A DNA stretch of 59,047 bases from an uncultured Candidatus Poseidoniales archaeon (GCA_902520595.1 CABYOM010000004.1:1-59047); one strand, 5' to 3'; counted from the first letter of the stretch, positions 13,186-35,275 are shown. Numbers and translations are program-made. Notes: generated by a model not told the origin, from the letters alone.

Positions 13186-14715
13186 ATGAGCCAAGGACCT
13201 GGCAAGGCCAAGCGCGGTATTCCATCTAAGGCTGAGAATTTCAATGAATGGTACCCATTCATGGTCGAGGCTGCAGAATTGGTCGACAAACGTTATCCTA
13301 TCAAGGGCATGGATGTATGGCGCCCATATGGTTGGAAAACCATGAAACTTATCGATGCACTTACTCATGCGGAGATGGAGCGAACAGACCATGAAGAAGT
13401 GAATTTCCCACTTCTCATTCCAGAAAATCTCTTGGAAAAAGAAAATGCTCTGGTTGCTCGATTAAAGCGTGCTCGTGAAGAAGGAGTCGACCCTGACGAT
13501 CTGCGTGATGAAGATGAAGAAGGTGGATTCAAGAAAGAAGTGTATTGGGTCAAACATGCTGGAGATAATGAATTGGATATTCCGATGTTCCTACGCCCTA
13601 CTTCGGAAACAGCCATGTACACAATGTTTCCATTATGGATACGATCTCACAAAGACTTGCCACTCAAGGTCTACCAAATGGTCAACACATTCCGGTATGA
13701 GACAAAGCAAACTCGTTCATTCATTCGTGTCAGAGAGATTCATTTCTTTGAAGCTCACACCGCACACGCCGATGAACAAGATGCATCTCGACAAATCGCT
13801 CAAGACCTCGAGATTGTAGACAATCTCATGCACGACTTGTGTCTTCCAATTATCAAAGCAAAGCGACCAGTCTGGGACACATTCCCTGGAGCATGGTACA
13901 CCATCGGAATTGATGCAGTAATGCCGAATGGAAGAACCCTGCAAGTTGCTTCTTGCCACCATTATCGTGACCAGTGGGCCAAAGCATTCGACCTCTCCTA
14001 TGAAAATCTTGAAGCAAAGCAAGAATATTGCCATCAGACAACTTATGGAATGTCGGAGCGATTACTCGGAGCCGTTGTTGGTATGCACGGTGATGAAAAC
14101 GGGTTGATTATGCCGCCTGCAGTTGCGCCATTCCAAGTGGTCATATGCCCAATGATTCGAAAGAACTCAGATGTAGACACCGTGGCAGTTGCACAAGACA
14201 TGGCATCTACACTCAAGAAGCACGGACTTCGAGTGAAAGTTGATTCACGAGATATCCATGCTGGTCAGAAGTATTACGATTGGGAAATTAAAGGTGTTCC
14301 ACTGCGACTCGATGTCGGTCCTCGAGACATTGCTCAAGGAACTGCATTTGCAGCTCGCCGAACTGGAGGAAAAGAACCAATCCCTATGGATGACTTACCG
14401 AATGCATGCCTTGCTATATTGGATGAAATTGCTACAGAATTACGCAATCGTTCATCTGCGCACATGCACGATGTCATACAACCCCTACCCGCCTTTGAAG
14501 AAAATGACGGGAACTGGGTCATGAAAGGTGAAATTGAAGAAGGCAAAATCTACCAAATCCCATTCGATGGAACTGACGCACATGCAGAAGCAATTGAACG
14601 TACGACTGGAATGACATTCCTCGGCGATTCAACTGAAGATTTTGATGAAGAAGTTCCATGCCACATGAGTGGTAAAATGACCAAGCGTCGTGTGATTCTC
14701 GCCAAAACCTATTGA
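13186..14715 (+). CDS. proS: proline--tRNA ligase (archaeal/eukaryote type)
   Basis: RPTSET, FRYETKQTR.FIRVRE, HQTTYGMSER, APFQVVI, GVPLR, C-terminal AKTY. Confidence 0.95.
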   Translation: MSQGPGKAKRGIPSKAENFNEWYPFMVEAAELVDKRYPIKGMDVWRPYGWKTMKLIDALTHAEMERTDHEEVNFPLLIPENLLEKENALVARLKRAREEGVDPDDLRDEDEEGGFKKEVYWVKHAGDNELDIPMFLRPTSETAMYTMFPLWIRSHKDLPLKVYQMVNTFRYETKQTRSFIRVREIHFFEAHTAHADEQDASRQIAQDLEIVDNLMHDLCLPIIKAKRPVWDTFPGAWYTIGIDAVMPNGRTLQVASCHHYRDQWAKAFDLSYENLEAKQEYCHQTTYGMSERLLGAVVGMHGDENGLIMPPAVAPFQVVICPMIRKNSDVDTVAVAQDMASTLKKHGLRVKVDSRDIHAGQKYYDWEIKGVPLRLDVGPRDIAQGTAFAARRTGGKEPIPMDDLPNACLAILDEIATELRNRSSAHMHDVIQPLPAFEENDGNWVMKGEIEEGKIYQIPFDGTDAHAEAIERTTGMTFLGDSTEDFDEEVPCHMSGKMTKRRVILAKTY

Positions 14716-15069: not shown

Positions 15070-16902
15070 TTATTCGCTATCAGGAAGTCCTAAATCGAGG
15101 TTAAATTTTCGTTCTAACTCTGAAACCCTTTCAGTCGAGATGCCAAGCGTTTTGGCTTGTATTTTCAGCATCTTTCGCTCATCGTCGGTTATAATCAAAT
15201 CTTCCATTGCTACTTGATATGCTTCCATGTATGATTCTTCTTTACTCTTATCCAGAACCTCGGATTCAGTAATCTGTGCCTGAATCTTAAATTCATCGTA
15301 TTGTATTACCCCATCTTCGTTCAAGTCAATCTCTTTGAATAATTCTGAACGTGACTCTAGAGGTAGTTTCGAGACCTCTGGAGCAGCTGAAAACTCCTCC
15401 GGCGAAATGAGATTGTCGTTGTTACTGTCCATTGATACAAATGCTTTCTTGATCTCTCTTTCGTCGATTGGGGCTTCACCCGTTGTGGCAAAAACACTCA
15501 TCATATTTATTCCGCTTTTGCCGTACCGTTCGGCCAAGTCTGTGTTACCTTGACCGAGTCTTTTCAATTCATCGTACCAATCCTCAAGGTAGGCTTTTCT
15601 CTCCACATCTATTCCATAGGCTGTGGCTTGTAAATTTAGCATCGAGCGTTCATTGTCGGTGATTCTGCTGTCCTTCATAGCAAGCGAATACATCTCAAGA
15701 TAACCTAATTCTTCTTGGGTATGGGATTCTGGAATAAGCTTTGATGAGAATACACCTAATGTTGATAAAATCGGTTTTCTCATCAATATGAATGTTAATC
15801 CAATGAATACACCACCGATCCAACCCTGATTAAACACAGACTCCATAAGTTCAGTACTAACTAAGAAGAGAATGGCACCCAAGCTTGCAAAAATGGTCGT
15901 TGTGAATGTCTTTCGCAACCGCTCATCAATTCCAAACATGTCGTTTTTGATGACTGCATAAGTGAAGATTATGCCCTCAAATAAAGCAGCCAAAACAACT
16001 GCTGTGGGCATCAATGGTGGAAGAATGTAGAGTGCTGTGGTCAATTCCATGCCAGGATTAAATGGGTTTACCTTCAGAGTTGGAGGTCCACCAATAATTG
16101 AAATCATCCAAAATAAGATGAGAGTTGTTGTGACTTGTAAAACGGTCTTGCCAATAAACCCTAAACGCACTGCTCTCACTTCACCGGTTAGATTTGTATT
16201 TTTCTCCTTAAGAATTCTGTTTTTCGAACGTGTGAGGGCAACGGTTGCCACAATTGCACCGATAAGAGGTATGAAGAGCAATATTCTGCTAAGTGGCCCG
16301 ATGACCACATTCGTAAACGTCAATGGATAAACCGATTCAAATTCTTCAGTGCACACCGGCTCAAAGGGCAAAGGCTCTCCTGAATATGTGGAGCCGCGAC
16401 CAGTACCTACGCTTTCGCAGTAAATCCAACTTATGTCTCCGATTGAAACATTCGTCCCTCCCAAGAAGTGACTCGAAATAAGAATCACACTCAAGCAAAA
16501 AATAGGAACGATGTACAATCCATGGAATTTGAAAAATCCAGATATTTGTTTCGCCCATTTATTTTCACTGTAGAACGTAGCTGCAACCATGTAGAGGATG
16601 AAAAGTTGCAGCGACATAGTGTAGTATGCAACTCGGGCAGGCTTCAAAAATGTCAACGCTTCTTCGGGCCATGCATACAACCAAAACAACATTGCTGTAA
16701 AGCAACGAATTGCTTCTGTTACAAGCATGAGAGCCATAAAACGATTCTTTGTTTTTTGTGGATTGGCCTTCAAAATTAAGTAAGCAAGGAAAATTAGGAA
16801 TATTCCGGATAAAATACTGAATATCGCAAGTAAATTCCAATATCCAATGAATGTACCTACTGCTCGTAGGTAATAGGAAAGAGGCGAGCCTACATCTGCC
16901 AT
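15070..16902 (-). CDS. multi-pass (about 9 TM) receptor-like protein with an EF-hand pair
   Basis: HisKA_7TM-like N-terminus (LKANPQKTKNRF...YAVIKNDMFGID). EF loops DSNNDNLISPEE and DLNEDGVIQYDE lie between two copies of a Y...Y..AM.D..IT..ER.ML..QA...GI repeat. Confidence 0.75.
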   Translation of the reverse strand: MADVGSPLSYYLRAVGTFIGYWNLLAIFSILSGIFLIFLAYLILKANPQKTKNRFMALMLVTEAIRCFTAMLFWLYAWPEEALTFLKPARVAYYTMSLQLFILYMVAATFYSENKWAKQISGFFKFHGLYIVPIFCLSVILISSHFLGGTNVSIGDISWIYCESVGTGRGSTYSGEPLPFEPVCTEEFESVYPLTFTNVVIGPLSRILLFIPLIGAIVATVALTRSKNRILKEKNTNLTGEVRAVRLGFIGKTVLQVTTTLILFWMISIIGGPPTLKVNPFNPGMELTTALYILPPLMPTAVVLAALFEGIIFTYAVIKNDMFGIDERLRKTFTTTIFASLGAILFLVSTELMESVFNQGWIGGVFIGLTFILMRKPILSTLGVFSSKLIPESHTQEELGYLEMYSLAMKDSRITDNERSMLNLQATAYGIDVERKAYLEDWYDELKRLGQGNTDLAERYGKSGINMMSVFATTGEAPIDEREIKKAFVSMDSNNDNLISPEEFSAAPEVSKLPLESRSELFKEIDLNEDGVIQYDEFKIQAQITESEVLDKSKEESYMEAYQVAMEDLIITDDERKMLKIQAKTLGISTERVSELERKFNLDLGLPDSE

Positions 16903-17012
16903 GTAAATACGTCAAAAGCAGTGTATATTAGGACTACTCTTTGATATTCACCTTTAAGTGCCTTTGAATAATTCGAGAACAACTTAGGAACGCTATCCAG
17001 CCGCTGCAATAT

Positions 17013-17909
17013 TTATTCAGACTCAGAAAAATTGCTCGAGGCTTTTTTACCGAAAATGATTCCTGAGAGAAGAACTGATGAACCTAGGCACCCAGCGAGC
17101 GTAAAGAGAATTGCTCCTGAAATTCCCGGACTCGCAATTGCCACACGTAAGATCACAGTCGACAATACAAAGCCGGTATTTCTAGCCAAATGGGAAAAAT
17201 CAGTAATGTACTGATATGAAAGCAAGAGTATGAGAATGTCTGCCATGATGAGTATAGTGAAGAAATCAAGGAAGAATATCATTCTGTTCGTACTCCCGTC
17301 TCCCTGTAAGAGAGCGTATGACCAAGTTGATAGCGAGTAACATGCAACCACGACATACACAGTAAGGAGTAAAAGGGCGAGTTGCTTTTTTTGTGAGATG
17401 AATTTGGTCAATTCCTCATTTGCGTTCGCATTGACATCGGCATTTCTTTGCACATTGTTAAAGAACAGTGCAGTCCAGAACAGGACGATAAAAGCGACAC
17501 ACTCCATACCCAGTGTCGTTATGCTGTCGTCAATTGATGAAGAAACTGAAGCGTCGATGTCAGACAATCTTTTGAGAATGTCTCGAACAACGAGTAGAGT
17601 TATGATTTCAAATTGTTTGCCGATAGAGTTTGTAAAAGACTTGGGTATTGTGCGTATTAATTCATAGACTTCGTAGGCTAAAAATATCGAAAATGGAGTG
17701 TACAGTGAATCGAGATATGAGTCAAACAGTCCACTTGTCTTATCAGAAAAAACGATCAATTCAAACTGGTACAGGAAACAGAGGAGAAGGTGAAACAGAA
17801 AACCAAGAATTGCAGCTCGGATGCATACAACACGCAAATTTTCGTTCACACTTTTGCCCAAGAACTTGTCATAGAGAGTATTCACGGTATCAATGTTTTT
17901 TGATTTCAT
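17013..17909 (-). CDS. hypothetical polytopic membrane protein
   Basis: 298-aa ORF with about 8 hydrophobic segments (YTPFSIFLAYEVY, GKQFEIITLLVVR, RNTGFVLST). Confidence 0.7.
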   Translation of the reverse strand: MKSKNIDTVNTLYDKFLGKSVNENLRVVCIRAAILGFLFHLLLCFLYQFELIVFSDKTSGLFDSYLDSLYTPFSIFLAYEVYELIRTIPKSFTNSIGKQFEIITLLVVRDILKRLSDIDASVSSSIDDSITTLGMECVAFIVLFWTALFFNNVQRNADVNANANEELTKFISQKKQLALLLLTVYVVVACYSLSTWSYALLQGDGSTNRMIFFLDFFTILIMADILILLLSYQYITDFSHLARNTGFVLSTVILRVAIASPGISGAILFTLAGCLGSSVLLSGIIFGKKASSNFSESE

Positions 17910-17958
17910 TCATATAACTATGTCATGCTCCACCCTACGAAAGCAGATTCTCGAAGAA

Positions 17959-18085
17959 AAATTCTATGATGGAAATAGGTCATTGTACTGACAAAATGAG
18001 ATTCAGCGACTCCTACACAACGGTACCCTTGTATTCATGGGTGTACACAAGGGTTCCCCTTTGAGATACTAGAATCATAGAATTT
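17959..18085. repeat. composite repeat: 12-bp inverted repeat enclosing two ACAASGG units
   Basis: AAATTCTATGAT (17959-17970) / ATCATAGAATTT (18074-18085). Inside lie TACACAACGGTACCC (18014-18028) and TACACAAGGGTTCCC (18044-18058), and the near-palindrome ACAACGGTACCCTTGT (18017-18032). Confidence 0.7.
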
Positions 18086-18126
18086 GTAGGGAATATCAAT
18101 ATATAGATAAACTCGGAGAATTCTGC

Positions 18127-18468
18127 ATGGAGGGATCACAACAAATCAGCAAATCAGAAACGTATGAATCTAGTTTGTTTTCAACCTTGAGCATTGGCGG
18201 AATGATTTCTATCTATCAGTTTTTCAACATGCGAGCAAATTTCTGCTTTTCTATCTGGGGATATCGTTGCGAATATCCTCCAGGATACGCATATCCGTTT
18301 ATCCTTCTATTTCTCTTGATCGTTCTCTCTGTTTCGTACGGAATTTGGTGTTTGACTCGTGGAAAATGGCGCTACGGAATGGGCGCCATCTCCGGGGGAT
18401 TTTTCTCTTTGCCCCTGTTTTTTCTCGCAATGGTTTTCGGAGCGATTTCTAGTGGAACTTTGGGATAA
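18127..18468 (+). CDS. small hypothetical membrane protein
   Basis: 113 aa, about 3 TM segments, C..WG..C..PPGY loop. Confidence 0.6.
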   Translation: MEGSQQISKSETYESSLFSTLSIGGMISIYQFFNMRANFCFSIWGYRCEYPPGYAYPFILLFLLIVLSVSYGIWCLTRGKWRYGMGAISGGFFSLPLFFLAMVFGAISSGTLG

Positions 18469-18486
18469 GTAGAAAGTAAGTAATTC

Positions 18487-18658
18487 GCTTGCGCTTACAA
18501 GGGGTTATGCTAAACACCATTGTGTACAATCCACCAGTTTGAAAGGGCTCTCAGTGGGCCCTTCACTACGCTAGCGATGTATATGACCCTCTGCGAACCC
18601 ATCAATATGATGAGTCTACTCACAAGGGTGTTTAGCATCAACCCTCGTAGAGATAAGC
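18487..18658. repeat. long imperfect inverted repeat made of two 27-bp palindromic (dif/attC-like) sites with internal hairpins
   Basis: ACAAGGGG-TTATGCTAAAC-ACCATTGT (18497-18523) and ACAAGGGT-GTTTAGCATCA-ACCCTCGT (18622-18648). The arms match at 25 of 29 positions. Internal hairpin at 18540-18565. Confidence 0.85.
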
Positions 18659-18730
18659 AAACCAATTATTCACTCTTATTTGTCAGATGAAAATTTATAT
18701 CATACACTAATTTCACCCTAATGTGATACT

Positions 18731-19318
18731 ATGACAAGATTAGTTGGTGAGGAAAATCTTGGTGAAAAGGAACTGCATCCCACTGAGACCTCAGTAATTG
18801 GAGCTAAAAATCAAGGTTTTTTTCATTACAATATAGTGTCACTTTGGATGGCGATTGTTCCTATCATTGGGCTTGTCCTTTGGCTTGCCCATTCAGCAAA
18901 TGACGCTGAATTCGCCAATTCAACAGGTGATGCCGCTGGATTCGTTTTGAGTGGTTTCATGATTTCCATTCCAATTGCCATGATTAGCGCACTTTTTGCA
19001 ATTCGAGCATTGGGCAAGCGATTCTTGAATCCGATGATAATCTCAATTCTAATTGCGATACCATTAGCAATTTGGGAATATTTCAATGAGTTAAATAATG
19101 GATGTTCTGATTGGGGTTGGGGAACTTGCCCCCCTGATCCACCAGGGTACGATTTACCACGTACTATTATGTTGATTTATCTCATTATTTTGGGGGTTTA
19201 CGCTCTTTCGAAATACGATAATAAAGAAGACCAAGCACGAACTTATGGTATTGCATATGGCATGGGATTTGGCTACCTAATTTACGTTCTTGCATGGTTC
19301 TACGGCTGGTTTGGATAA
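18731..19318 (+). CDS. hypothetical membrane protein
   Basis: 195 aa, about 5 TM segments, GCSDWGWGTCPPDPPGY loop. Confidence 0.7.
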   Translation: MTRLVGEENLGEKELHPTETSVIGAKNQGFFHYNIVSLWMAIVPIIGLVLWLAHSANDAEFANSTGDAAGFVLSGFMISIPIAMISALFAIRALGKRFLNPMIISILIAIPLAIWEYFNELNNGCSDWGWGTCPPDPPGYDLPRTIMLIYLIILGVYALSKYDNKEDQARTYGIAYGMGFGYLIYVLAWFYGWFG

Positions 19319-19351
19319 ACTAATTCACATACAAAGAATCTATCTGATGCA

Positions 19352-19379
19352 GTTGGGTTGAACACAAGGGGGTCCCAAC
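19352..19379. repeat. partial copy of the island repeat between convergent genes (possible terminator hairpin)
   Basis: GTTGGG-TTGAACACAAGGGGGT-CCCAAC; resembles TGGGTGTACACAAGGGTTCCC at 18038-18058. Confidence 0.55.
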
Positions 19380-19386
19380 GTGAAGT

Positions 19387-20460
19387 TCAATCTTCAATAT
19401 GCTTCAAGCGGCTAATGGCCTTTTTCCGGTTTTCAGGAATTTTCGTATCCAATCTCTCTTGGGATTGAATCGTCACAAGGCCATCTTCTTCGTCTAATTC
19501 AAGCATTGCTAGGAAATTTTCGCTCAGAGCTTTCAATTGAGATTCTCCGAAAACAACGTAGACCTTATCGGCCTCTCCGAATACGTCTATTGACCATTCA
19601 AGTCCAAAGCAGGGAACTCCATTTCGAACTAAAATCAAACAATCTCTCATCTCAATTTTATGTCTGCTTCGAAGTTTTAATTTGCTGAAACTATTGTATT
19701 CAATGGTGTATGTTTCGGTCTTCTCTAAATCAGCGTGTAACTGTATAAGATTCTTTTTTGAGCCAGTCTCGTCTTCTTCTAAATTATATTCAGGCCAGTC
19801 AGGATGATTTACTCCAAATATCCGTGTAATCGTCAAACCTCGTTCAATTAGATCTAAATTGAAGTTAAAAAATTTCTGACCTGTTTGGGGGCGGAGCCAC
19901 CAAAGTCGCGTATTTGTGAAGGCAGTTGCATAGATTTTGTCTCCTGGTTGAGCAAATTCCGTAATCAATTGGTAGGTATCCTTCGATTCATCGGAACCTT
20001 GTAATCCCGGAGTTCTAGAGATTAATTGAATCCTCCCAAAATCACGAATATTGGCTTCCTGCTCATTAATTGTCCAATGAACAATTTGGTTTGCAACGAT
20101 TTCGCTCTTTGCATCAATTTCACGTGCAGAAATTCCCTCGATGAGATTTCGAAGTGAATAAGCAATTTTAGCTCGAATAGGGCCAATTTCTGTTAATCTC
20201 GCTTTTGAATTAGGCCAATTCATCAAAAACGTACCGAAATTACTCTCCTTCTCTTTGAGATGTAACCTGTGGATGAAAAGTACGGCTGGTCCGATGATAC
20301 TTGTTGTTACTGAAGTCAAAAGATACTGGGAGAGAACAACACTATCCCAAACAAAAATTTCTTCACCGGAAGCAACTCTTGAAGATATTGCCAATACCAA
20401 TCCAACAATCGCAGATACGACTGCTGCAATGATTATACTTGATGATCTACTTTCATTCAT
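19387..20460 (-). CDS. 2-TM protein with a soluble DUF6879/PLD-like domain
   Basis: ATG at 20460 overlaps the EamA stop. Two N-terminal TM helices, then an IYATA...WW...G..F...N.....RG.TITRIF pattern. The domain call is from memory and tentative. Confidence 0.55.
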   Translation of the reverse strand: MNESRSSSIIIAAVVSAIVGLVLAISSRVASGEEIFVWDSVVLSQYLLTSVTTSIIGPAVLFIHRLHLKEKESNFGTFLMNWPNSKARLTEIGPIRAKIAYSLRNLIEGISAREIDAKSEIVANQIVHWTINEQEANIRDFGRIQLISRTPGLQGSDESKDTYQLITEFAQPGDKIYATAFTNTRLWWLRPQTGQKFFNFNLDLIERGLTITRIFGVNHPDWPEYNLEEDETGSKKNLIQLHADLEKTETYTIEYNSFSKLKLRSRHKIEMRDCLILVRNGVPCFGLEWSIDVFGEADKVYVVFGESQLKALSENFLAMLELDEEDGLVTIQSQERLDTKIPENRKKAISRLKHIED

Positions 20461-21412
20461 TTTCTCCACCTTCCAAAGTTTCATTTTTGTTTTGCTCAAA
20501 AATAATCAATACCATGCCAGCAATCAGTACCGAGCCTCCAACCCATGTCCATATACCGGGGACTTCAGCAGTTCCTAACTGCCATCCAATCAGGGTACCT
20601 ATCAACGGCTCGAAAAGGTATGCAACGCTAACAATGATTGGAGGGAACCACCTCAACACCATACTTATTCCAGCATGACCTACAATACCAGGGAATACAG
20701 CGAGATACAACACATAGGGTAACCAAGACAAAGCCATCCAACCTACGATTGAAATATCTGCATCAGACATTGAAAACGTTGAACCTTCTGAAATCAAGGA
20801 AATGAGCGCTAATTGAATTGCAGCTATGAATGTAACCGGGAAAGCATAGACGAATAAGGGCATCCATTTCCTCAATTTACTACCTGCGATCAAGTATCCT
20901 AAAATCGCAACAGCGCCCAATATTGCTGCTATGTCACCGATCAAAGTAGCATCAACTTCAGATGAAATTCCTAGCAGCGTGATGCTTGCACCAGTAAATC
21001 CAACAATCGCGCCCGCTATTTGTTTGACAGGAACAAATCGTCTCAGTAGTAAAGCACCAGAAACGAGGAGGAGGGGATGAATCGTCACAAGAAGTAAACT
21101 GTGTGTCAATGATGTGTTGTCTAAGGACCACACCCATGCACCCATGTGCAACCCAAGACTTAATCCAGACCCTAAAAGGATGAAAATGGTTTCCTTATCC
21201 ATAATTTTGGCCATAATTTCGGGTTGCTTGCTGCATTGTCTGTATTGAATGATGAACATCGGGGCCATCAAAATTGCAGTAAGTTGAAACCTCCACGATG
21301 CCCGAAGCATAGGTTCGACATCATCCATAAGTTGAAAGATTGCCCCTGCACTTGAAACAGAAACTATAGCGAAGAATAGAATAATCCATAAAAGTATACT
21401 ATTTTTCTGAAT
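20453..21412 (-). CDS. DMT/EamA family transporter
   Basis: RASWR, AWVWSLDNTSLTHSLLLV, GD.AA..GA, PGIVGH, EPLIG motifs. The frame with TM1 extends upstream of ATG 21328 to an ATT at 21412. Confidence 0.85.
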   Translation of the reverse strand: MQKNSILLWIILFFAIVSVSSAGAIFQLMDDVEPMLRASWRFQLTAILMAPMFIIQYRQCSKQPEIMAKIMDKETIFILLGSGLSLGLHMGAWVWSLDNTSLTHSLLLVTIHPLLLVSGALLLRRFVPVKQIAGAIVGFTGASITLLGISSEVDATLIGDIAAILGAVAILGYLIAGSKLRKWMPLFVYAFPVTFIAAIQLALISLISEGSTFSMSDADISIVGWMALSWLPYVLYLAVFPGIVGHAGISMVLRWFPPIIVSVAYLFEPLIGTLIGWQLGTAEVPGIWTWVGGSVLIAGMVLIIFEQNKNETLEGGENE

Positions 21413-21568
21413 ATCCTCACCCCTCTTAGCAATCTAAGTCGGCCATAATAGCAAGCAAAATCTCATACTTATTGAAATCATCACTAATTAGCCCAAGTTT
21501 GAACAAACACAACGTATCGAATCCAATTAACCAAATCTGGTAAATGAATAAGTGGTTTACGTATAATA

Positions 21569-21652
21569 ACGAGGGGTCATGTTAACAACCCTTGTACACG
21601 ATTTGCATGTTCACAAGGTTTGCAGTGGGTCATATGCAACGGTACCGTTGTG
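21569..21652 (+). repeat. diverged inverted copy of 18564-18648 (27-bp site plus 14-bp palindrome)
   Basis: ACGAGGGG-TCATGTTAACA-ACCCTTGT (21569-21595), then GGTTTGCAGTGGGTCATATG and the perfect palindrome CAACGGTACCGTTG (21637-21650). Confidence 0.8.
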
Positions 21653-21677
21653 TTCAAAAGCGGGTAAGCGATTGAAA

Positions 21678-22703
21678 TCAGCGAGTTGCAAGAGTGAGGT
21701 TCTTCCACATCTCTTCTGGGACTTCCATAGCAAGTCTGAGACCACCCATTGCGCCGAGACGAACCGGGTCATCAACTACGTGAACATTCACATCGCCCAT
21801 GTCGGAGAGTTTACGCTCAATCATTGCACCGAGACCCTTAATTCCAGATCCGCCACCAGCAAGAACCATGTTTCGACGGAACTCGTCATGATATTCTGGG
21901 TTTGAACCAGCAATCAATTCCTTAACGTTCTCGACAATAGGATCAACAATTGATTCGCAAGCACGTTGGATACAATCTGTGATGTCAAGATTCATTGCCT
22001 TACCTTCAATAGAAAAGTCAACCATAACTGGTTCATCAGGAGATGCAGAGCCAACAAAGGAATACTGTTCCTTCCAGCGTCGAGCCATGTCCTTGGTAAT
22101 TTGCGCACCACTGTATTTGGATTGAACTTCTTTGATAATTGCCCGGTCGATGAAATCACCAGCATGACCAGTGTGCATTTGGTCGCCTGGACCAGGGATT
22201 GTTCCGTATACACGGCAAAGGTCTGCTGTTCCTGCCCCGATATCGATGACAAGAGTGTGTTCAATCATATCGAGTGCATAAGCAACTGCGAAAGGTTCTG
22301 AAATAATCATAGCAGCGTTTACAGAACCTGCTGCAGCATCAAAGATTGATGTCTTATCGACGTAACTCGCTTCAGCAGGTGCGCCTATGACTGCGACCAC
22401 ACGGTCATAATCTTCAGGGTCGGAAAGACCGATAAGATGGGTAATGAAGTGTGCAATAAATTCACGGTCTTCTTGTGTGTCCTTGATTACACCAAGTTCC
22501 AATGGACGGAAAAGATTCAGAGCGAGTCGATTTTTGAGAGCTTCTTCACCAAAAAGAACATCTCGCTTGAGGAAGTTTCGAGCAATCGGGTCCTTTGGAG
22601 TGCCAATGACTGTGAGCTCTTCTTCTTCATGACTATCCGAAGATACCATTACGGAACGGAAGGTTCCTAAATCAATTCCAATATACAATATGTCTTCTGC
22701 CAT
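21678..22703 (-). CDS. actin-like ATPase, MamK-like
   Basis: Phosphate 1 GIDLGT, VIGAPA, SEPFAVAY, phosphate 2 DIGAGTAD, KEQYSFV, adenosine LAGGGS, C-terminal GGLRLA.E.P.E.W. Confidence 0.9.
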   Translation of the reverse strand: MAEDILYIGIDLGTFRSVMVSSDSHEEEELTVIGTPKDPIARNFLKRDVLFGEEALKNRLALNLFRPLELGVIKDTQEDREFIAHFITHLIGLSDPEDYDRVVAVIGAPAEASYVDKTSIFDAAAGSVNAAMIISEPFAVAYALDMIEHTLVIDIGAGTADLCRVYGTIPGPGDQMHTGHAGDFIDRAIIKEVQSKYSGAQITKDMARRWKEQYSFVGSASPDEPVMVDFSIEGKAMNLDITDCIQRACESIVDPIVENVKELIAGSNPEYHDEFRRNMVLAGGGSGIKGLGAMIERKLSDMGDVNVHVVDDPVRLGAMGGLRLAMEVPEEMWKNLTLATR

Positions 22704-22861
22704 AGCACTCGCCTAACCTTGCCATTGCGAACTACCTTATGAAGAATACCTCCCCTGTGAGAGAAGTTTTTCACCACGAATAGTCAAATCCGTACGGAAA
22801 TCTTGATTGAATAGGTTCTATAGAGTCGGGTCTGAAAAGTAATTTTCTCGGGTATTCCCTC

Positions 22862-23878
22862 TCAACACCACTCTTCACATGACTGGCAATACCATGCAGC
22901 ATATTCTGGATAGAGTTGTGCCATTTTCCCACAACTTGTACACTCTTTGAGCGTGTCTTCACCATACATTTCCAAAACCATTTGAACATGATACACATCA
23001 TCAATACCGAGTTGCTGACGCATAGACCAAAGCAATTGGTCTTCGCTTGGTGAGATAATTCCATCTTCTAAAACCAATTCGACGATACTGCGGTAATCTT
23101 CAAAATCTTGGAGATTCCGAGCATCGAGAACAATACCATTCTTCTCTGCAACAATATCAGTGCCTCCCGGGTCATCGACGAAAAGAACCAGTGATTCAGA
23201 CTTTAGTTGATCACTGCGAAGTTCAAAAGAGATTCGAACCCCTTCAAGGGTGGCAAATACCAATTCTGAATTGTTATTAATCGTCGTCGTAATCGAACGT
23301 GCCGTATCTTCAGCAGAGCGACCCTTTCGCCATCCATTCGGGTCATTGACATTAAAGCAATAAAATTCAGTACCCATTCCGGGATACTCTAATCGAATTT
23401 CTTCCCCACCGTCAAATCCATTGGCAACTACTGTAAGTGCAGCGACTTCTGTTGAAACAATATTATCATCGTCATCAAAACTGATCATCAAAGGTTTTCT
23501 CTCTTCTGTGGCGGTGTTAAAGTGGCCCTGCATTCCAGTCATCCATTTATCTTCAAGACGAGCGAGTGATTCTTCTTGCTTTTTTGAGAGGTTCTTCTCA
23601 ACGCCGAGAACTCCTGCTAAACTACCGGATTCAATCTCGCGCTTAAATTCCTCAATTTTTTCCGTGTCTTGATGATATGTTGGGACTGCGTGTGTATTTG
23701 ATTCTTCGACATAATCGGGGTCTTGCCACTCATGTTGACAAGAAACACACGAAAGATAGCCAGTCATTGTTGATGGTTGGGCATCCCCGCCACAACGAGG
23801 GCAATCACCGCCTTCATTGAATCCGAGATTATCAACAGCCTCGCGACGACCCTTTCGTATATTGCCGAATCCCGCCAT
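22862..23878 (-). CDS. hypothetical protein with N- and C-terminal zinc ribbons and a TerB-like motif
   Basis: CPRC...CVSC and CTSC...WYCQSC; LEDGIISPSE..LL...R..LGI. Confidence 0.7.
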   Translation of the reverse strand: MAGFGNIRKGRREAVDNLGFNEGGDCPRCGGDAQPSTMTGYLSCVSCQHEWQDPDYVEESNTHAVPTYHQDTEKIEEFKREIESGSLAGVLGVEKNLSKKQEESLARLEDKWMTGMQGHFNTATEERKPLMISFDDDDNIVSTEVAALTVVANGFDGGEEIRLEYPGMGTEFYCFNVNDPNGWRKGRSAEDTARSITTTINNNSELVFATLEGVRISFELRSDQLKSESLVLFVDDPGGTDIVAEKNGIVLDARNLQDFEDYRSIVELVLEDGIISPSEDQLLWSMRQQLGIDDVYHVQMVLEMYGEDTLKECTSCGKMAQLYPEYAAWYCQSCEEWC

Positions 23879-30371: not shown

Positions 30372-32579
30372 TCACTCAGCGTAATAGGATTCAGGGTAAG
30401 GTTCTGGTTTGAGCCCTTTACGTGTTCGAATTTGGCCTACGACCTTGTCAAACAGTTGAGGGGGAAGCATTTCGAAACCGAGATTCTCAGTGTTCCATAC
30501 TGCACGACCCTGAGATGCTGCTCGAATATCGTTGGAGAAACCAAAGGTCTCTGCAATCGGAAGAACACCGACTACAGTTGTAACTTCACCTTCTGATGGC
30601 ATGTCTTCGATAATTCCTCTTCGGTTAGTGACCTCGCGAGTTACTTGACCAAGCCAGTCGTTTGGAACTGATACGAACGCCTTCTGCATAGGTTCGAGAA
30701 GAACTGTTCGTGCTCTCATCATTGCACCCTTAATCCCGTTGCGAACGGCAGGAATTGTTTGGGCAGGTCCACGGTGAATTGCGTCCTCGTGAAGTTTTGC
30801 ATCTACGAGTCGGACAAACATTCCTTGAACGGGCTCATCAGCGATTGGACCCTTCGAGCACACACCATTGAATGCTTCAATAATCAATTCACGAGTTTCG
30901 TGAAGACCCTGAATACCCTTGGTATCATTCACGAGAACATTGGAACCATTGATAGCGTAAATTTTGCGCATCAAATCTTTGTCCATTCCGAGTTCACCGA
31001 ACTTACGGCCGACTTCCTTTGCGTCATTCGGTCGAATGGTTCCTGAGCCAAGATCTCCAGCACGGAGAGCTGCGACAACTTCAGGAGTGAGGGCTTCAAT
31101 TTCAAAGAAGAAACGGTTGTGACGGTTTGGTGATTTACCTTCAAACGCATTTCCACGATTGCTACCTTGAATACCTTCACGATAAACAACAATAGGTGGG
31201 CTTACGCTCACTTTGATGTTCTGTTCTTCTTCAATTCGGTAAACGGTAATCTCCAAGTGCAACTCTCCCATTCCAGCAAGCAGAGCTTCACCGGTTTCTT
31301 GGTTGGTTGTGACTTGAAGAGATGCGTCAGCCTTGGCAAGGGAACGTAGAGCGTCAATGAACTTTGGAAGGTCCTTCATACTCTTAGGCTCAACTGCAAC
31401 GGTAACAACAGGATCCGAGTAGTGCCGAATTGCTTCGAACGGAGTGAAATCTTTGTCACGTGAGAGGGTTACACCTGCTGCTGCGGAGCGAATACCGGTA
31501 AGAGCAGCGATGTTTCCTGCAACAACCTTTGGAACAGTAATTCGGTCTCCGCCGACCATCATGCTCACTTGCTGAACACGCTCGGCTTTTGCAGCACCGA
31601 TAGCGAAAACTGATTCACCCTGAGATATTGCTCCTGAATAAATTCGTCCAACAGCGACTTCACCAGCGTGTGGGTCCATCCAAATTTTGGTAATCATCAT
31701 TGCAAGTTCTGCTTCAGGGTCACAATTGACCATTGCTTTACCAATCTCAGAATCGAGGTCGCCAGTCCAAATGTTCGGGATACGGTAGGGTTGTGCCTCA
31801 ACAGGTCCAGGAAGTTTTGTAACTGCCATGTCCAAGAGAACTTCATGAACAGGCGCCTTAGATGCGAGCGTCTTTTGATCCTCGTTGTTACAGTATTCGA
31901 AAATTTGAGTCATCGACACCCCGGACTTTTTCATGTAAGGGATGGTAATACCCCAGTTGTGGTATGCACTACCGAACGCAACTGTTCCGTCCATAACACT
32001 GACTTGCCAACTTTTCTTGAATTCTTCAGGAGCGAACTGACCAATAAGTCGGTTCACTTTTTTGATGGTTTCAGTGAATCGAGCCATCATGTCTTCAGGA
32101 GTCACTTGCAATTCGTTAATCAGTCGGTCGACTTTGTTAATGAAAAGAACTGGCTTGACCTTTTCTTTGAGAGCTTGACGAACGACAGTTTCGGTTTGAG
32201 GCATTGGTCCTTCTACTGCGCATGCGAGAATGAAACATCCGTCAACAGCACGCATGGCACGGGTAACGTCCCCACCAAAGTCAACGTGACCTGGTGTGTC
32301 GATGAGATTGATGAGATAGTCAATTCCATCAACTCCGTGAACCATTGAAGCGGATGCTGCGTTAATGGTGATACCACGCGCAGATTCTTGCTCATCGAAA
32401 TCTAAAACACGAGCTGCACCGGCAAGATCACTGGACATCATTCCAGCACCAGCGATGAGGTTGTCAGACAACGTAGTCTTTCCGTGGTCAATGTGTGCAG
32501 CAATACATAAATTACGAATTTGAGGCAAAATATGCATGACTTCGGTTGCTTTGTTAATGTTATCTTCCTTTCGGCCCAT
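30372..32579 (-). CDS. fusA: translation elongation factor 2 (aEF-2)
   Basis: AHIDHGKTT, RGITI, DTPGHVDF, NKVD, GMGELHL; diphthamide loop LHEDAIHRGPAQ. Confidence 0.97.
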   Translation of the reverse strand: MGRKEDNINKATEVMHILPQIRNLCIAAHIDHGKTTLSDNLIAGAGMMSSDLAGAARVLDFDEQESARGITINAASASMVHGVDGIDYLINLIDTPGHVDFGGDVTRAMRAVDGCFILACAVEGPMPQTETVVRQALKEKVKPVLFINKVDRLINELQVTPEDMMARFTETIKKVNRLIGQFAPEEFKKSWQVSVMDGTVAFGSAYHNWGITIPYMKKSGVSMTQIFEYCNNEDQKTLASKAPVHEVLLDMAVTKLPGPVEAQPYRIPNIWTGDLDSEIGKAMVNCDPEAELAMMITKIWMDPHAGEVAVGRIYSGAISQGESVFAIGAAKAERVQQVSMMVGGDRITVPKVVAGNIAALTGIRSAAAGVTLSRDKDFTPFEAIRHYSDPVVTVAVEPKSMKDLPKFIDALRSLAKADASLQVTTNQETGEALLAGMGELHLEITVYRIEEEQNIKVSVSPPIVVYREGIQGSNRGNAFEGKSPNRHNRFFFEIEALTPEVVAALRAGDLGSGTIRPNDAKEVGRKFGELGMDKDLMRKIYAINGSNVLVNDTKGIQGLHETRELIIEAFNGVCSKGPIADEPVQGMFVRLVDAKLHEDAIHRGPAQTIPAVRNGIKGAMMRARTVLLEPMQKAFVSVPNDWLGQVTREVTNRRGIIEDMPSEGEVTTVVGVLPIAETFGFSNDIRAASQGRAVWNTENLGFEMLPPQLFDKVVGQIRTRKGLKPEPYPESYYAE

Positions 32580-32726
32580 GGAATCACCCGTGACTTCTCG
32601 TCAATAACGGCCACCGGAAAGGGGTTCTTAAGTAACTCGCAACGAACAAACGGTTCGGGTCGACAGTGAGCGAAAAAAGGTTTTCTCAGACACTGGATGA
32701 TGGCACAAAAATCGCTTGAAATGACT

Positions 32727-33362
32727 TCAGCGAGCAGAAGCAGCGATGCGTTCCAATTCTTCCTTCTTTGCGACTGCAAACGAAGTAGCGTCACCAGAAG
32801 ATGCCTTGGAGATTTCATTGATGACACAGTTGGTCAAGGTTCTCTTTGATTTGTGAGTTCCTTGTTGAGCACCTTTAGCAAGGTTGCGAAGAGCGACATC
32901 GAGGCGTCGAGAAGGTGAAGAATCAACTGCTTTGGGTTGTGAAACTGCACCGAACTTAATTCGAGTGATTTCTTCCATTGGAGCAGCATTGCAAATAGCA
33001 TTGACAAAAATCTGAAGTGGGTTTTCTCCGGTCTTTTCTGCGATCGCATCAAGAGCAGCTTCAAATGCCTTCATTGCGCCCTGTTTCTTTCCGGTGTAAG
33101 GTCCGGTTCGCATGAGTTTGTTGATGTAGCGTTCTACGACAGATAGCTTTGCTTTACCAAACCATGCGTTTGCGTGTCGACCACCAGTGTGCGGGACTCC
33201 AACTGTTGTGAGATTGATGTAAGGAGCAAGTCCAGGGTCTTTACAGGTTATCGCTGATGCATCCCACTTACCAAAGACGAGCGTTCCAATACCGGCAATA
33301 GGTCGAACGTCTTCAACAACAACTTCGTCTTGTTCTTCTTCGACCACTTCTGACTCTGACAT
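32727..33362 (-). CDS. rps7: 30S ribosomal protein S7 (uS7)
   Basis: VPHTGGRH, ENPLQ, AVD.SP.RR.D.ALR, KKEELERIA.SAR; S12-S7-EF2 order. Confidence 0.96.
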   Translation of the reverse strand: MSESEVVEEEQDEVVVEDVRPIAGIGTLVFGKWDASAITCKDPGLAPYINLTTVGVPHTGGRHANAWFGKAKLSVVERYINKLMRTGPYTGKKQGAMKAFEAALDAIAEKTGENPLQIFVNAICNAAPMEEITRIKFGAVSQPKAVDSSPSRRLDVALRNLAKGAQQGTHKSKRTLTNCVINEISKASSGDATSFAVAKKEELERIAASAR

Positions 33363-33373
33363 ATTCGAACACC

Positions 33374-33802
33374 TCAGCGGATTGGCTTTTCTTTTCGGCC
33401 ACGGACCATTTCGTTCAAAGAAACACCATTGACTTGAATGACTTTGTATCGGACACCAGGAATGTCTCCGTATGAACGACCCATGCGTCCACCGATACCC
33501 TCAACCATCACTTCGTCGTGTTCATCGATGAAGTTGATTGCACCGTCGCCAGGGGCGAAAGCTGTGAGTTTGTTACCGTTTTTGATAAGTGAAATCTTCA
33601 CTGCTTTTCGGATACCGGAATTCGGCTGTTTCGCCTCAATACCGACTTTTTCAATCACGATACCCTTTGCTTGAGTAGAGCCCGCAAGAGGGTCGTGTTT
33701 TGCTCGAGATTTGAGCATACGCTTCTTGTATCGGCGGTCTGACCAGCGAAACTTTTGACGGTCCTTTGCCATTTTAGCACCTGCGAAGAGTCCTCTACCC
33801 AT
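33374..33802 (-). CDS. rps12: 30S ribosomal protein S12 (uS12)
   Basis: [32 protein letters not shown]. Confidence 0.97.
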
Positions 33803-34003
33803 CATAATCACCGCATTGAAGCACTCTGCCGACTTGAATCCCCTATTTAAAACGACCCTCAAAGCCTGCGTAGACGGGTCGAAGAAATATGCTAATTATA
33901 CAGTGAAATCTTTCAAACAGAACTCGGTAAAATCAGCCCATATAGTCGAAATTCTGCATGTCTGTTAAACAAGGTTCAAGCGTTGAGTTCATTTCGCAGA
34001 AGC

Positions 34004-35275
34004 ATGGCCTTTCGCGACCACCTCGGTGCAGCCACCGTAGAATCCAACCCTGTAAGCCTCATTCATGGAATGTGGGAGCACTCTCGAGCGAGTCACCATG
34101 ATCTTACTTTATTCGACAATATTCTTGAAAGCCCCGGACAGCGTGCAGCAATCAACATTTTGACTCGTGAACGGTTGTGTGAAGCGATAGGTATCACGCC
34201 AGAGGAATATATCGATACGTTAGGCTGGGCGATGAATAATCCAAGTGAACCGATTATTGTTGACGCATCTGAAGCCGAGTGTTTCGAAAATCTACAGGAG
34301 ACTGTCGACATTACGAAACTGCCTATTCCTCATCACTGGCCGCAAGATAGAGGCCGTTATTCTTCTGCGAGTGTAATTATTGCAGAAGATAACGGAATTA
34401 GAAACATGTCGTTCCACCGCCAATTTGTCCGCGATCCAAATCATTTGGTCGTGCGTCTTGTGCCACGACATCTGCGAACAATGACTATGAATGCTCGAAA
34501 GGAAGGTCGAGAAGTCGATATTGTAATTGTCAATGCTCCAGACCCTGTCGTTTTACTTGCTGCTGCTATGTCGTTTGATGAAAACATTGATGAATTAACA
34601 ATCGCAGCTGCCCTTCACGAGAAATTGTATGGTAAGCCACTGCGACTGACACGTATGCCAAACGGAGTTCTTGCTCCTGCAGATGCGGAATTTGTTCTGT
34701 GGGGGAGAATTACAAACGAGGATGATGATGAGGGCCCATATGTCGATATTACCGGAACTGTTGACGATGTTCGCCAAGAGCCGGTAATCGAAATCGATGG
34801 TGTCATCCATCGCGACAATCCAATTTTCCATGCCCTCATTCCAGGAGAAGCAGAGCACAAGACTCTGATGGGACTCCCTCGAGCTCCAACAATCAAGGCT
34901 GCTGTGAGTGAAGTTTGCGAGTGCATCGATGTCCACATGACCGAGGGTGGATGTGGTTGGTTAGCCGCTGTCATCAAGATTCGTAAAACTCGTGCAGAAG
35001 ACCCGCTTCGCGCCATTGAGGCGGCCCTTGCTGGGCATAGAAGTATGAAGATGGTAACAGTTGTTGACGAGGATATCGACATCGGAGACCCTGTTCGAGT
35101 CGAGTGGGCTATGGTCACTCGTTGGCAACCGGACAAAGATACAATTATCCTATCAAATCAAAAGGGTAGCTCACTCGACCCTTCTCGAGACTCCGACGGA
35201 CTTACAGCAAAAGTTGGTTTTGATGCTACTTTGCCTTGGGGCGTTGACCATGATGGATTTATGTCTGTTCAATGA
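34004..35275 (+). CDS. UbiD family prFMN-dependent decarboxylase (archaeal type)
   Basis: NMSFHR, VPRHL, AEFVL.G, EGPYVDITG, GGCGWL, VVDEDID, VEWA..TR.Q, GSSLDPS. Confidence 0.88.
   Translation: MAFRDHLGAATVESNPVSLIHGMWEHSRASHHDLTLFDNILESPGQRAAINILTRERLCEAIGITPEEYIDTLGWAMNNPSEPIIVDASEAECFENLQETVDITKLPIPHHWPQDRGRYSSASVIIAEDNGIRNMSFHRQFVRDPNHLVVRLVPRHLRTMTMNARKEGREVDIVIVNAPDPVVLLAAAMSFDENIDELTIAAALHEKLYGKPLRLTRMPNGVLAPADAEFVLWGRITNEDDDEGPYVDITGTVDDVRQEPVIEIDGVIHRDNPIFHALIPGEAEHKTLMGLPRAPTIKAAVSEVCECIDVHMTEGGCGWLAAVIKIRKTRAEDPLRAIEAALAGHRSMKMVTVVDEDIDIGDPVRVEWAMVTRWQPDKDTIILSNQKGSSLDPSRDSDGLTAKVGFDATLPWGVDHDGFMSVQ

Follow-up and report, generated by a model that had tools for sequence, protein, structure and literature searches.

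What moves the small membrane-protein genes that lie between a proS-like gene and an MreB/actin-like gene of an uncultured Candidatus Poseidoniales archaeon? The window analyzed here is an entire contig of 59,047 nucleotides (C4; GCA_902520595.1 CABYOM010000004.1) from an assembly (G000) of 1.42 Mb in 91 contigs, which is 70% complete. The original prediction had singled out three 27-bp palindromic sites in the spacers of this region as dif/attC-like sites, at which a host tyrosine recombinase such as XerA may exchange gene modules. Here, we found that the 27-bp sites belong to a longer repeat, element E, which bounds the modules. This element is probably a res-like composite recombination site at the borders of swapped modules, with the serine recombinase SR-A as its likely enzyme.

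When the window was searched with the pattern ACRAGGG-N13-CCNTTGT, matches were obtained at 18497-18523 (+), 18622-18648 (-) and 21569-21595 (+), which are the positions predicted for sites 1 to 3. Counting both strands, this corresponds to six matches against 0.10 expected, and none of 100 shuffled sequences reached this number. The predicted half-sites also proved to be real, since ACACAASGG was found at 18015, 18045, 19362 and 21645 (-), four matches against 0.84 expected (0/100 shuffles reach four). Comparison with the open reading frames (ORFs) confirmed that every one of the three 27-mers and of the half-sites is located in a spacer between genes. Elsewhere in the assembly, the pattern with the 13-nt spacer gave one further, weak match (C1:1875). 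The alternating orientation that had been proposed holds for the window (+, -, +) but not as a general rule, as G003:C3 carries three successive copies on the same strand.

The 27-mer is one block of a larger unit. In blastn comparisons with 41 relatives it was the intergenic pieces of 17900-21700, and not the genes, that matched many places on both strands, and the query 21540-21665 had matches in 30 of the 72 genomes of the genus. An iterated nhmmer profile collected 56 copies from the own genome and 37 fetched loci of relatives and defined element E with a length of about 104 bp. E consists of AC[AG][AT]GGG heptamers in both orientations and at unequal spacing. A conserved 5' block is followed by the 27-mer (H1, 7-13-7), by another heptamer with a conserved GCAGTGGGTC-type block, and by a terminal 16-bp palindrome (H3, 7-2-7) of the type ACAACGG-TA-CCGTTGT; there are single heptamers in addition. 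Some 14-16 nt beyond H3 a short palindrome (H4, 7-3-7) of the type ACAAGGGG-N-CCCCTTGT often lengthens the element to about 150 bp. The half-sites of the window fall into this scheme: those at 18015 and 21641-21652 are H3 palindromes of E-type elements, that at 18045 is an H4, and that at 19362 is half of an H4-type palindrome. We surveyed the flanks of 114 distinct copies that had an intact H3 end and 45 nt of flanking DNA. Sixteen of them meet an inverted partner with which they have one H3 in common, 30 continue into an H4-type palindrome, and the remainder show neither. Further copies are present in the own assembly on C43 (four), C49, C1 and C22, and copies within one genome are about 70-80% alike. 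The central dinucleotide of H3 is nearly invariant: among 138 distinct copies the T was found in 130 of 131 covered rows and the A in all 131, and both are invariant in an alignment of 22 copies. An interpretation of E as a small ORF was rejected because of 1-nt indels between copies.

The actin gene is present in all 72 genus genomes, and we used 20 fetched flanks to compare what separates it from the proS-like gene (window 13186-14715). As anticipated by the original prediction, gene content differed between strains, and the interval is hypervariable, ranging from 8 bp to several genes. The shortest version was found in G021 (8 bp), followed by G008 (0.66 kb) and by G017, G051, G079 and G064 (about 1.8 kb each). 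G003 holds a DUF6796 homolog, 0.7 kb of DNA and an orthologous copy of the element that adjoins actin in the window (E3), G006 a DUF6796 homolog and then 78 bp, and G042 an EF-hand gene plus 2.1 kb. Other content, which includes a 39-44%-identical gene of the EamA family, is present in G012, G015, G018, G019, G024, G041, G045 and G081. In the single-contig genome G041 (C1:1175435-1176456), the match to the actin ortholog is split in two (residues 1-152 and 154-341), which may reflect a frameshift or a sequencing error.

The break points of homology between strains and species coincide with the repeat system, as had been expected for module borders. The actin protein of G004 is 99.7% identical (tblastn; 100% in another comparison), and homology of this genome with the window is restricted to the DNA from position 21643 on, with unrelated DNA to the left. 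Position 21643 is the T of the central TA in the H3 of E3. The DNA that adjoins actin in G004 is a block of 3.6 kb (block B, G004:C78:3843->92), which corresponds to C49:669->4304 of G000 (92% identity), and on G004:C55 an E with its H3 adjoins block A (C49:673->2, 89% identity). Thus, four junctions can be compared, actin/E3 and A/B in G000 as well as A/E and actin/B in G004. All of them carry a heptamer of the A[CT]A[AC]CGG type plus TA and continue with either of two alternative right sides, with the partners swapped, and, as read from these alignments, every exchange appears to fall on the same TA dinucleotide. Since the junctions have these 2 bp in common, the data fit a serine-type exchange; a 6-bp overlap of the tyrosine type would differ between the partners.

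Three other joints were resolved in a similar way. On C43 the homology with G004 and G042 stops at 1613. A partial E has its H3 (1622-1636) about 10-15 nt from this point, and its body lies on the G000-specific side. On C22 homology stops at 18366, 10 nt from the TA of a copy of the subfamily E'. This copy recurs in inverted orientation 2.7 kb further on, with H3 outermost in both copies, so that the pair brackets a 2.7-kb unit. Finally, G006:C136 matches 19326-19372 of the window and continues with an intact short palindrome, an H3 and another short palindrome, whereas G000 has a module of a 370-aa protein gene and an EamA gene past 19372. In G006 this gene pair separates two genes that are direct neighbours in G000 (C7 12459/12601). 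Taken together, the 27-mer does mark module borders, as had been proposed, but the crossover point probably lies elsewhere, in the TA-centred 16-bp palindrome about 42 bp beyond the 27-mer in the same element. The similar short palindrome at 19362 is probably also a crossover point, and the crossovers would thus correspond to what the original prediction had called half-sites.

Contigs from natural populations break at the same places. We aligned contigs from four runs of four studies at 90% identity or more; such contigs show joints and not frequencies. Across public runs at most 0.32 of the sampled words of 17900-21800 were present (RNA runs, at most 0.05). Contig pieces begin or end at 18017, at 18572, 18575 and 18591, at 18672, at 21553, 21576 and 21618, and at 21657, 21685 and 21691. 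Those at 18572, 18575 and 18591 are starts and come from three runs, and the piece that starts at 18017, within the H3 of a partial element (E0), belongs to run X2. Around the short palindrome, three runs (X2, X4, X6) showed ends at 19372/19376 and starts at 19369, and X4 has a different left flank before 19369, which finishes in the same half-site. Different flanks were also observed in three runs before 21676/21688. No contig of the four runs covered 16806-18009, which proves nothing about absence. Two apparent joints (21560->18500 and 21603->18569) were not counted as deletions, as we read them as other metagenomic E copies that match piecewise.

These data bear directly on the proposed dif/pdif-like sites with module exchange by the host XerA. 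The assembly does contain one Xer-like tyrosine recombinase (364 aa), H3 can also be read as two 5-bp arms around a 6-bp spacer, and site 1 alone resembles a dif arm in its loop. However, the 11-6-11 architecture of dif is not seen in either reading of the element (7-13-7 in H1, 7-2-7 or 5-6-5 in H3). The dif resemblance holds for site 1 or a single subfamily only, and the loop concerned varies between subfamilies. The XerC-like arm occurs in site 1 alone and has no counterpart in the family consensus, which differs. The 2-bp TA common to the four junctions is not what a 6-bp overlap would leave, and the copies are dispersed (1-22 per genome). Moreover, there is no E within 1.5 kb of the Xer-like gene, the sole one of its kind in the assembly, whereas a serine recombinase gene shows tight linkage to E, as described below. 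We consider the XerA explanation very unlikely.

Scanning related Poseidoniales genomes, as the original prediction had suggested, gave a positive result. When a sequence-only covariance model of the element (R1) was applied, 63 of the 72 genus genomes gave matches (1-22 copies per genome), as did 90 of 121 genomes drawn from the order, which represent 18 of 21 genera (family f1 55/59, f3 33/59, f2 1/2; 451 matches in all). The copies sit in strain-variable islands. Among 150 listed genus matches, at least 23 lie within about 350 bp of a contig start, which we take to mean that assemblies break there because strains differ. The subfamily E' is better conserved, with 81-91% identity to at least seven places in G003 and with own copies on C22 (bracketed unit 18369-21115; L073:1369-4115) and at C43:4019-4093, and it may represent the most recently active lineage.

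Some of these properties would also be expected if E were a terminal repeat or a relic of the miniature inverted-repeat transposable element (MITE) type moved by another enzyme, or a passive palindromic hot spot of replication slippage or hairpin cutting. Units are flanked by inverted copies, converging pairs give palindromes of about 190 bp (the 16 copies of the flank survey), E' recurs with 81-91% identity at seven or more places of G003, matches accumulate at contig starts, and breaks at palindrome centres also fit hairpin processing. On the other hand, no target-site duplications are visible in the flanks, and no Y1 transposase (PF01797) was found in the 70%-complete own assembly. A family that is only 70-80% alike per genome and yet kept across two families of the order does not look like a selfish burst. 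A dedicated enzyme is also favoured by the TA, which hardly varies, and by the constant placement and strand of E ahead of SR-A. Taking both sides into account, we regard a transposon relic or a passive hot spot as unlikely.

Each copy of E can be drawn as two or three hairpins, and the G-U-compatible changes of H1 in the window are all on one strand, which might point to a small structured RNA or to attC-like folded single-stranded DNA. However, Rfam gave no matches at E values of 1 or below in 17000-23000, and RNAalifold predicted no base pairs for 22 full-length copies. When the stems of H1 and H3 were named explicitly, pairing was found in 79.8% of the cells compared with 79.1% in shuffles, and the covariation score was 0.172 compared with 0.160, a value reached by 149 of 500 shuffles. 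In 54 copies the variable pair of H1 was A-T 31 times, A-A 10 times, T-T eight times and T-A never, so that the two arms vary independently. Accordingly, the inverted repeats have the properties of heptamer motifs that are conserved as duplex DNA. The attC analogy of the original prediction is not supported, since attC sites keep their structure with covarying arms and free sequence, whereas in E the sequence is conserved and no pair covaries. A structured RNA or a folded single strand is extremely unlikely. A reading of ATGATGA near 18609 as part of a C/D-box RNA was dropped, as inspection by eye revealed no D box at the right spacing.

The candidate enzyme emerged from a Pfam scan of the ORFs in E arrays. 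The first lead was a 263-aa SR-A protein of another genus (G089; PF00239, 4.8e-32; PF07508, 1.6e-5), the gene of which is enclosed in a unit bounded by inverted E copies (C13, 2980-5624). Among 25 PF00239 loci in metagenome-assembled genomes (MAGs) of the order, seven hold an E within 1.5 kb. The members of the subfamily SR-A in these genomes comprise 234-299 aa and share 53% or more identity with the G089 protein. A second PF00239 subfamily (38-46% identical), which includes the gene of G000, has no member with an E within 1.5 kb. At the MAG loci of SR-A the element is located upstream of the gene and divergent from it, at 66-264 bp in L105-L109 and at 600-750 bp in L076 and L104, and this arrangement was found in MAGs of two families. 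At L111 and L119, E-like tandem units are present by eye.

As a test set separate from the MAGs, we used 80 SR-A loci from metagenomes (317,257 bases). In this DNA nhmmer detected 96 E matches (95 with the covariance model), compared with the 451 matches in 121 whole genomes. An upstream E was detected at 57 of 80 loci; when only the 48 loci with 1 kb or more of upstream DNA are considered, 42 have one. In all 57 cases the nearest upstream E was on the strand opposite to the SR-A gene. The distances to the gene form clusters at 74-83 bp (four loci), 186-194 bp (15 loci) and 305-368 bp (five loci). For all E matches at these loci, we counted 69 minus and seven plus upstream of the gene, and 13 plus and seven minus downstream. 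Nine loci contain units of the type E(-)..SR-A..E(+) with lengths of 2.45-4.08 kb.

SR-A has 1238 relatives at E values of 1e-10 or below. Among the best 120 of these, 98 have a length of 257-265 aa (range 176-304); most are located on contigs of 1-5 kb and have generic names only. The residues of the catalytic motif are invariant in 32 sequences. The nearest NCBIfam models are CcrB (4.7e-23), XisF and CcrC, all far below the cut-offs, with a weak match to Mpi (3.2e-9), and SR-A aligns to positions 7-247 of the 542 of CcrB. Among solved structures, the catalytic domain of TP901-1 integrase gave the best sequence match. An AlphaFold model of SR-A (mean predicted local distance difference test score, pLDDT, 75.7) matches large serine integrases over about 250 columns (Foldseek E value 1.6e-9). 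SR-A is therefore a protein of about 262 aa that consists of a catalytic and a recombinase domain and lacks a zinc ribbon and a coiled coil. A search of viral contigs for SR-A gave 18 pattern matches, none of which was confirmed. On the basis of its association with the element, SR-A is most likely the enzyme of E.

Several observations were made around these genes. In G103 (L111) the SR-A gene is followed by a gene for a protein of the same family as the 412-aa C5 DNA methyltransferase of G000, the start of which overlaps with the serine recombinase gene of that genome by four bases. For the serine recombinase genes of both L111 and G000, no E was detected just upstream; L111 has the E-like units mentioned above. 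In L105, L109, L106 and L108, tandem units of 60-70 bp with a TGTTGAA..ATCAACAAATCG-type motif lie between the SR-A start and E, and these may represent further binding sites or a promoter/operator of the recombinase gene.

The position of E before SR-A raises the question of whether the element is mainly a transcriptional control region, for instance an operator array for SR-A or another protein, with the rearrangements being old or incidental. The heptamer arrays are spaced by about one or two helical turns. E is located 74-368 bp upstream of SR-A and divergent from it, as res is located before tnpR, where res also represses, and among 39 assessable copies 14 are divergent from a gene start. 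In contrast, many copies are found where two genes converge (31 of 51 on the 3' side), the break points are at TA, and contigs from populations break at the sites. Control and recombination do not exclude each other in res-type sites. A mainly regulatory role appears quite improbable to us.

We favour the reading of E as a res-like recombination site, which may be pictured as follows. E would be a composite double-stranded site, with H3 as crossover subsite and H1, H4 and the other heptamer blocks as accessory sites. By analogy with res, SR-A dimers bound to H3 would cut at the central TA with a 2-nt stagger and rotate, and strand exchange would take place there. The other heptamer blocks would serve as accessory binding sites, build the synapse and set its polarity. 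Copies of E, either single or converging with one common H3, would bound small gene modules (cassettes), which would have been moved, swapped or inverted between TA-centred joints, possibly via circular intermediates, over evolutionary time as well as in present-day populations.

A number of findings weigh against this reading. The palindromic TA provides no polarity, unlike the att sites of the known large serine integrases. The own assembly, which is 70% complete, contains no SR-A gene. Its single serine recombinase (292 aa) belongs to the second subfamily and has no E within 1.5 kb. The unit formed by this gene and the methyltransferase gene (C7:~31929-34042, L114:6930-9043) is not flanked by a long inverted repeat, with two weak 22-23-nt pairs only. 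PF00239 genes were found in 19 of 121 genomes of the order compared with 90 of 121 for E, although this shortage in E-bearing MAGs may partly reflect poor assembly of the regions concerned. The orientation of E relative to neighbouring genes, based on crudely called ORFs, is weakly biased (5' side, 25 vs. 14; 3' side, 31 vs. 20). The E copies at the G000/G004 junctions are 71% identical, so that the four-way junction needs more than one event. Finally, no E was detected at the ends of the 370-aa/EamA module in G006, where the junctions were inspected.

When applied to the window, the arrangement is best explained by two cassettes (Table 1). Cassette 1 extends from 18025 to 18572, and cassette 2 from 18573 to 21643 with an older joint inside at 19372. 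The claim that sites 2 and 3 bracket a three-gene module holds, since both belong to elements (E2 and E3) that flank this module, and the more general claim that the sites delimit gene modules is supported by the E-bounded cassettes and the break points. E2 converges on E1, with a common H3 at 18566-18579 and its TA at 18572-18573. The terminal H3 of E3 is at 21636-21651 (TA 21643-21644). E0, which neither profile reported, has its H3 at 18017-18032 (TA 18024-18025) and its H4-type palindrome at 18045-18063.

Table 1. Features of the cassette array and its flanks in the window
Feature	Position	Strand	Basis
298-aa membrane protein, left neighbour of the array	17013..17909	-	DUF6796, Pfam E value 2.3e-4, below cut-off
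Partial element E0: 3' part of E body, H3, 12-nt spacer, H4-type palindrome	17990..18063	+	by eye against the family alignment
Cassette 1 cargo: 113-aa predicted membrane protein	18127..18468	+	ORF; no Pfam family
Element E1, holds site 1 (H1 18497-18523)	18477..18580	+	nhmmer 3.8e-22; model R1 73.3 bits
Element E2, holds site 2 (H1 18622-18648)	18566..18668	-	nhmmer 6.3e-20; model R1 76.7 bits
Cassette 2a cargo: 195-aa predicted membrane protein	18731..19318	+	ORF; no Pfam family
Hybrid short palindrome, left arm intact, right arm replaced; 2a/2b joint at about 19372	19362..19382	+	comparison with G006:C136
Cassette 2b cargo: 370-aa protein, no Pfam family	19387..20499	-	ORF; Pfam search
Cassette 2b cargo: EamA-type transporter	20453..21412	-	PF00892, 1.3e-12
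Element E3, holds site 3 (H1 21569-21595)	21549..21651	+	nhmmer 3.4e-24; model R1 81.4 bits
MreB/actin-like gene, conserved right flank of the array	21678..22703	-	PF06723, 1.2e-24

The homolog of the DUF6796-like protein adjoins actin in G006 and G003 and is absent from the interval in G021, G008 and others. The 195-aa gene has its own TATA-like box at about 18692, and a 44%-identical relative of its product adjoins an E in G010:C52. For the EamA gene, homology with the G006 copy extends to about 21495. The 113-aa and 195-aa proteins have a Cys..PPGY motif in common. A Cys-x-Trp/Cys-Pro-Pro-Gly-Tyr-like motif before a hydrophobic helix was seen in both and in the protein encoded by C49:4498-4812, and these small membrane proteins may form a cassette-associated family of paralogs. 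Outside the array, a 338-aa protein (22862-23878, minus strand) gave a weak match to an IS1595-type zinc ribbon. Its gene adjoins actin in 18 of the 20 fetched flanks, and the remaining two stretches do not extend far enough to reveal it. The gene is a resident one and not the remnant of a transposase. A 610-aa protein with an EF-hand pair is encoded between the proS-like gene and the array (15070-16902, minus strand), and among the 20 flanks its gene was found at the same place only in G042, so that it is part of the variable interval.

Whether the findings can be generalized to the whole order is a separate question. We give about even chances to the idea that Poseidoniales possess an order-wide, integron-like cassette system, in which a minimal 'half' serine integrase would act on a res-like TA site and excise, insert and invert cargo. 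In this view, the cargo would consist mostly of membrane and surface proteins, transporters and restriction-modification genes and would lie at many chromosomal joints. Marine Group II archaea are uncultured and very abundant. The defined site, the candidate enzyme and the mapped joints give their 'hypervariable islands' a mechanism that can be tested. This mechanism would also explain why the islands and the recombinase gene assemble poorly: many elements are found where contigs end, and contigs that carry an SR-A gene mostly measure 1-5 kb. If it is true, the cassette system generates much of the strain-level variation in gene content in one of the ocean's most abundant archaeal groups, and the 262-aa serine recombinase, with its compact and conserved target, would add a new minimal member to a class of enzymes that is widely used in genome engineering. 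Our literature searches found no paper that names such a system and none that pairs a serine recombinase with Poseidoniales, and broader searches gave nothing relevant among the rows listed.

Integrons, some of which have been described in other archaeal phyla, resemble the present system in having arrays of short, mostly promoter-poor cargo genes that are split by a recurring 60-150-bp site, with cassettes that differ between strains. They depend on a tyrosine recombinase, however, and their attC is read as folded single-stranded DNA with little sequence conservation. A term search of the main text of the report on archaeal integrons (10.1101/2022.02.06.479319) did not find Poseidoniales, Marine Group II or Thermoplasmatota. 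In the present system, the orientations of E are mixed, no attI/intI platform was seen, and the sole tyrosine recombinase of the assembly lies away from any E.

The pdif modules of Acinetobacter plasmids employ 28-bp sites with 11-6-11 architecture, which are used by the host tyrosine recombinases XerC/XerD. As in our arrays, the sites at the two ends of a module are inversely oriented, and adjacent modules have one site in common. E differs in its 7-2-7 core with long accessory arms, its chromosomal location and its link to a serine recombinase. Elements of the MITE type or repetitive extragenic palindromes (REP) are characterized by near-identical copies, a target-site duplication and a cognate transposase (for example Y1/RAYT), none of which was seen for E, in its flanks or in the 70%-complete own assembly.

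Among the systems driven by serine recombinases, staphylococcal cassette chromosome (SCC) elements integrate in tandem at the 3' end of a conserved gene, each bounded by a repeat of the attachment core. The arrays described here likewise consist of tandem cassettes bounded by a core repeat and adjoin a conserved gene at its 3' end, and CcrB was the best, although far subthreshold, NCBIfam match of SR-A. Ccr proteins, however, comprise about 450-560 aa with zinc-ribbon and coiled-coil parts and act on simple att sites, whereas SR-A has about 262 aa and its site is composite. Similarly, SR-A lacks the full domain set (catalytic, recombinase, zinc ribbon/coiled coil) and the size (450-700 aa) of the large serine integrases. 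The serine invertases (Hin, Gin, Mpi) have inverted sites around a segment that can hold the recombinase gene, as E and SR-A do, and a single enzyme may serve many dispersed sites, as in the case of Mpi. Their sites of about 26 bp have a non-palindromic centre and need an enhancer, and, unlike in these systems, flipped forms were not seen in our contigs.

There is a close likeness to the res/resolvase systems (Tn3/gamma-delta, Sin). In Tn3-type elements res is arranged in a characteristic layout relative to tnpA and tnpR, and several inverted-repeat subsites with unequal spacers occur within 100-150 bp. E has the same composite build in about 100-130 bp (spacers of 2, 3 and 13 bp), a palindromic central dinucleotide as putative crossover in the outermost subsite, and a putative enzyme with a serine-type catalytic domain. 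It is also located directly upstream of the recombinase gene and divergent from it, with the putative crossover subsite farthest from the gene. Unlike in resolvases, the C-terminal part of SR-A matches PF07508, the recombinase domain of serine integrases, and not a small C-terminal helix-turn-helix. There is no transposase and there are no Tn3-type ends, the hosts are archaea, and many E sites are dispersed on the chromosome in both orientations, where they bound cargo modules. Thus, the system works like res/resolvase joined to integron- or SCC-like arrays and is a member of none of these classes.

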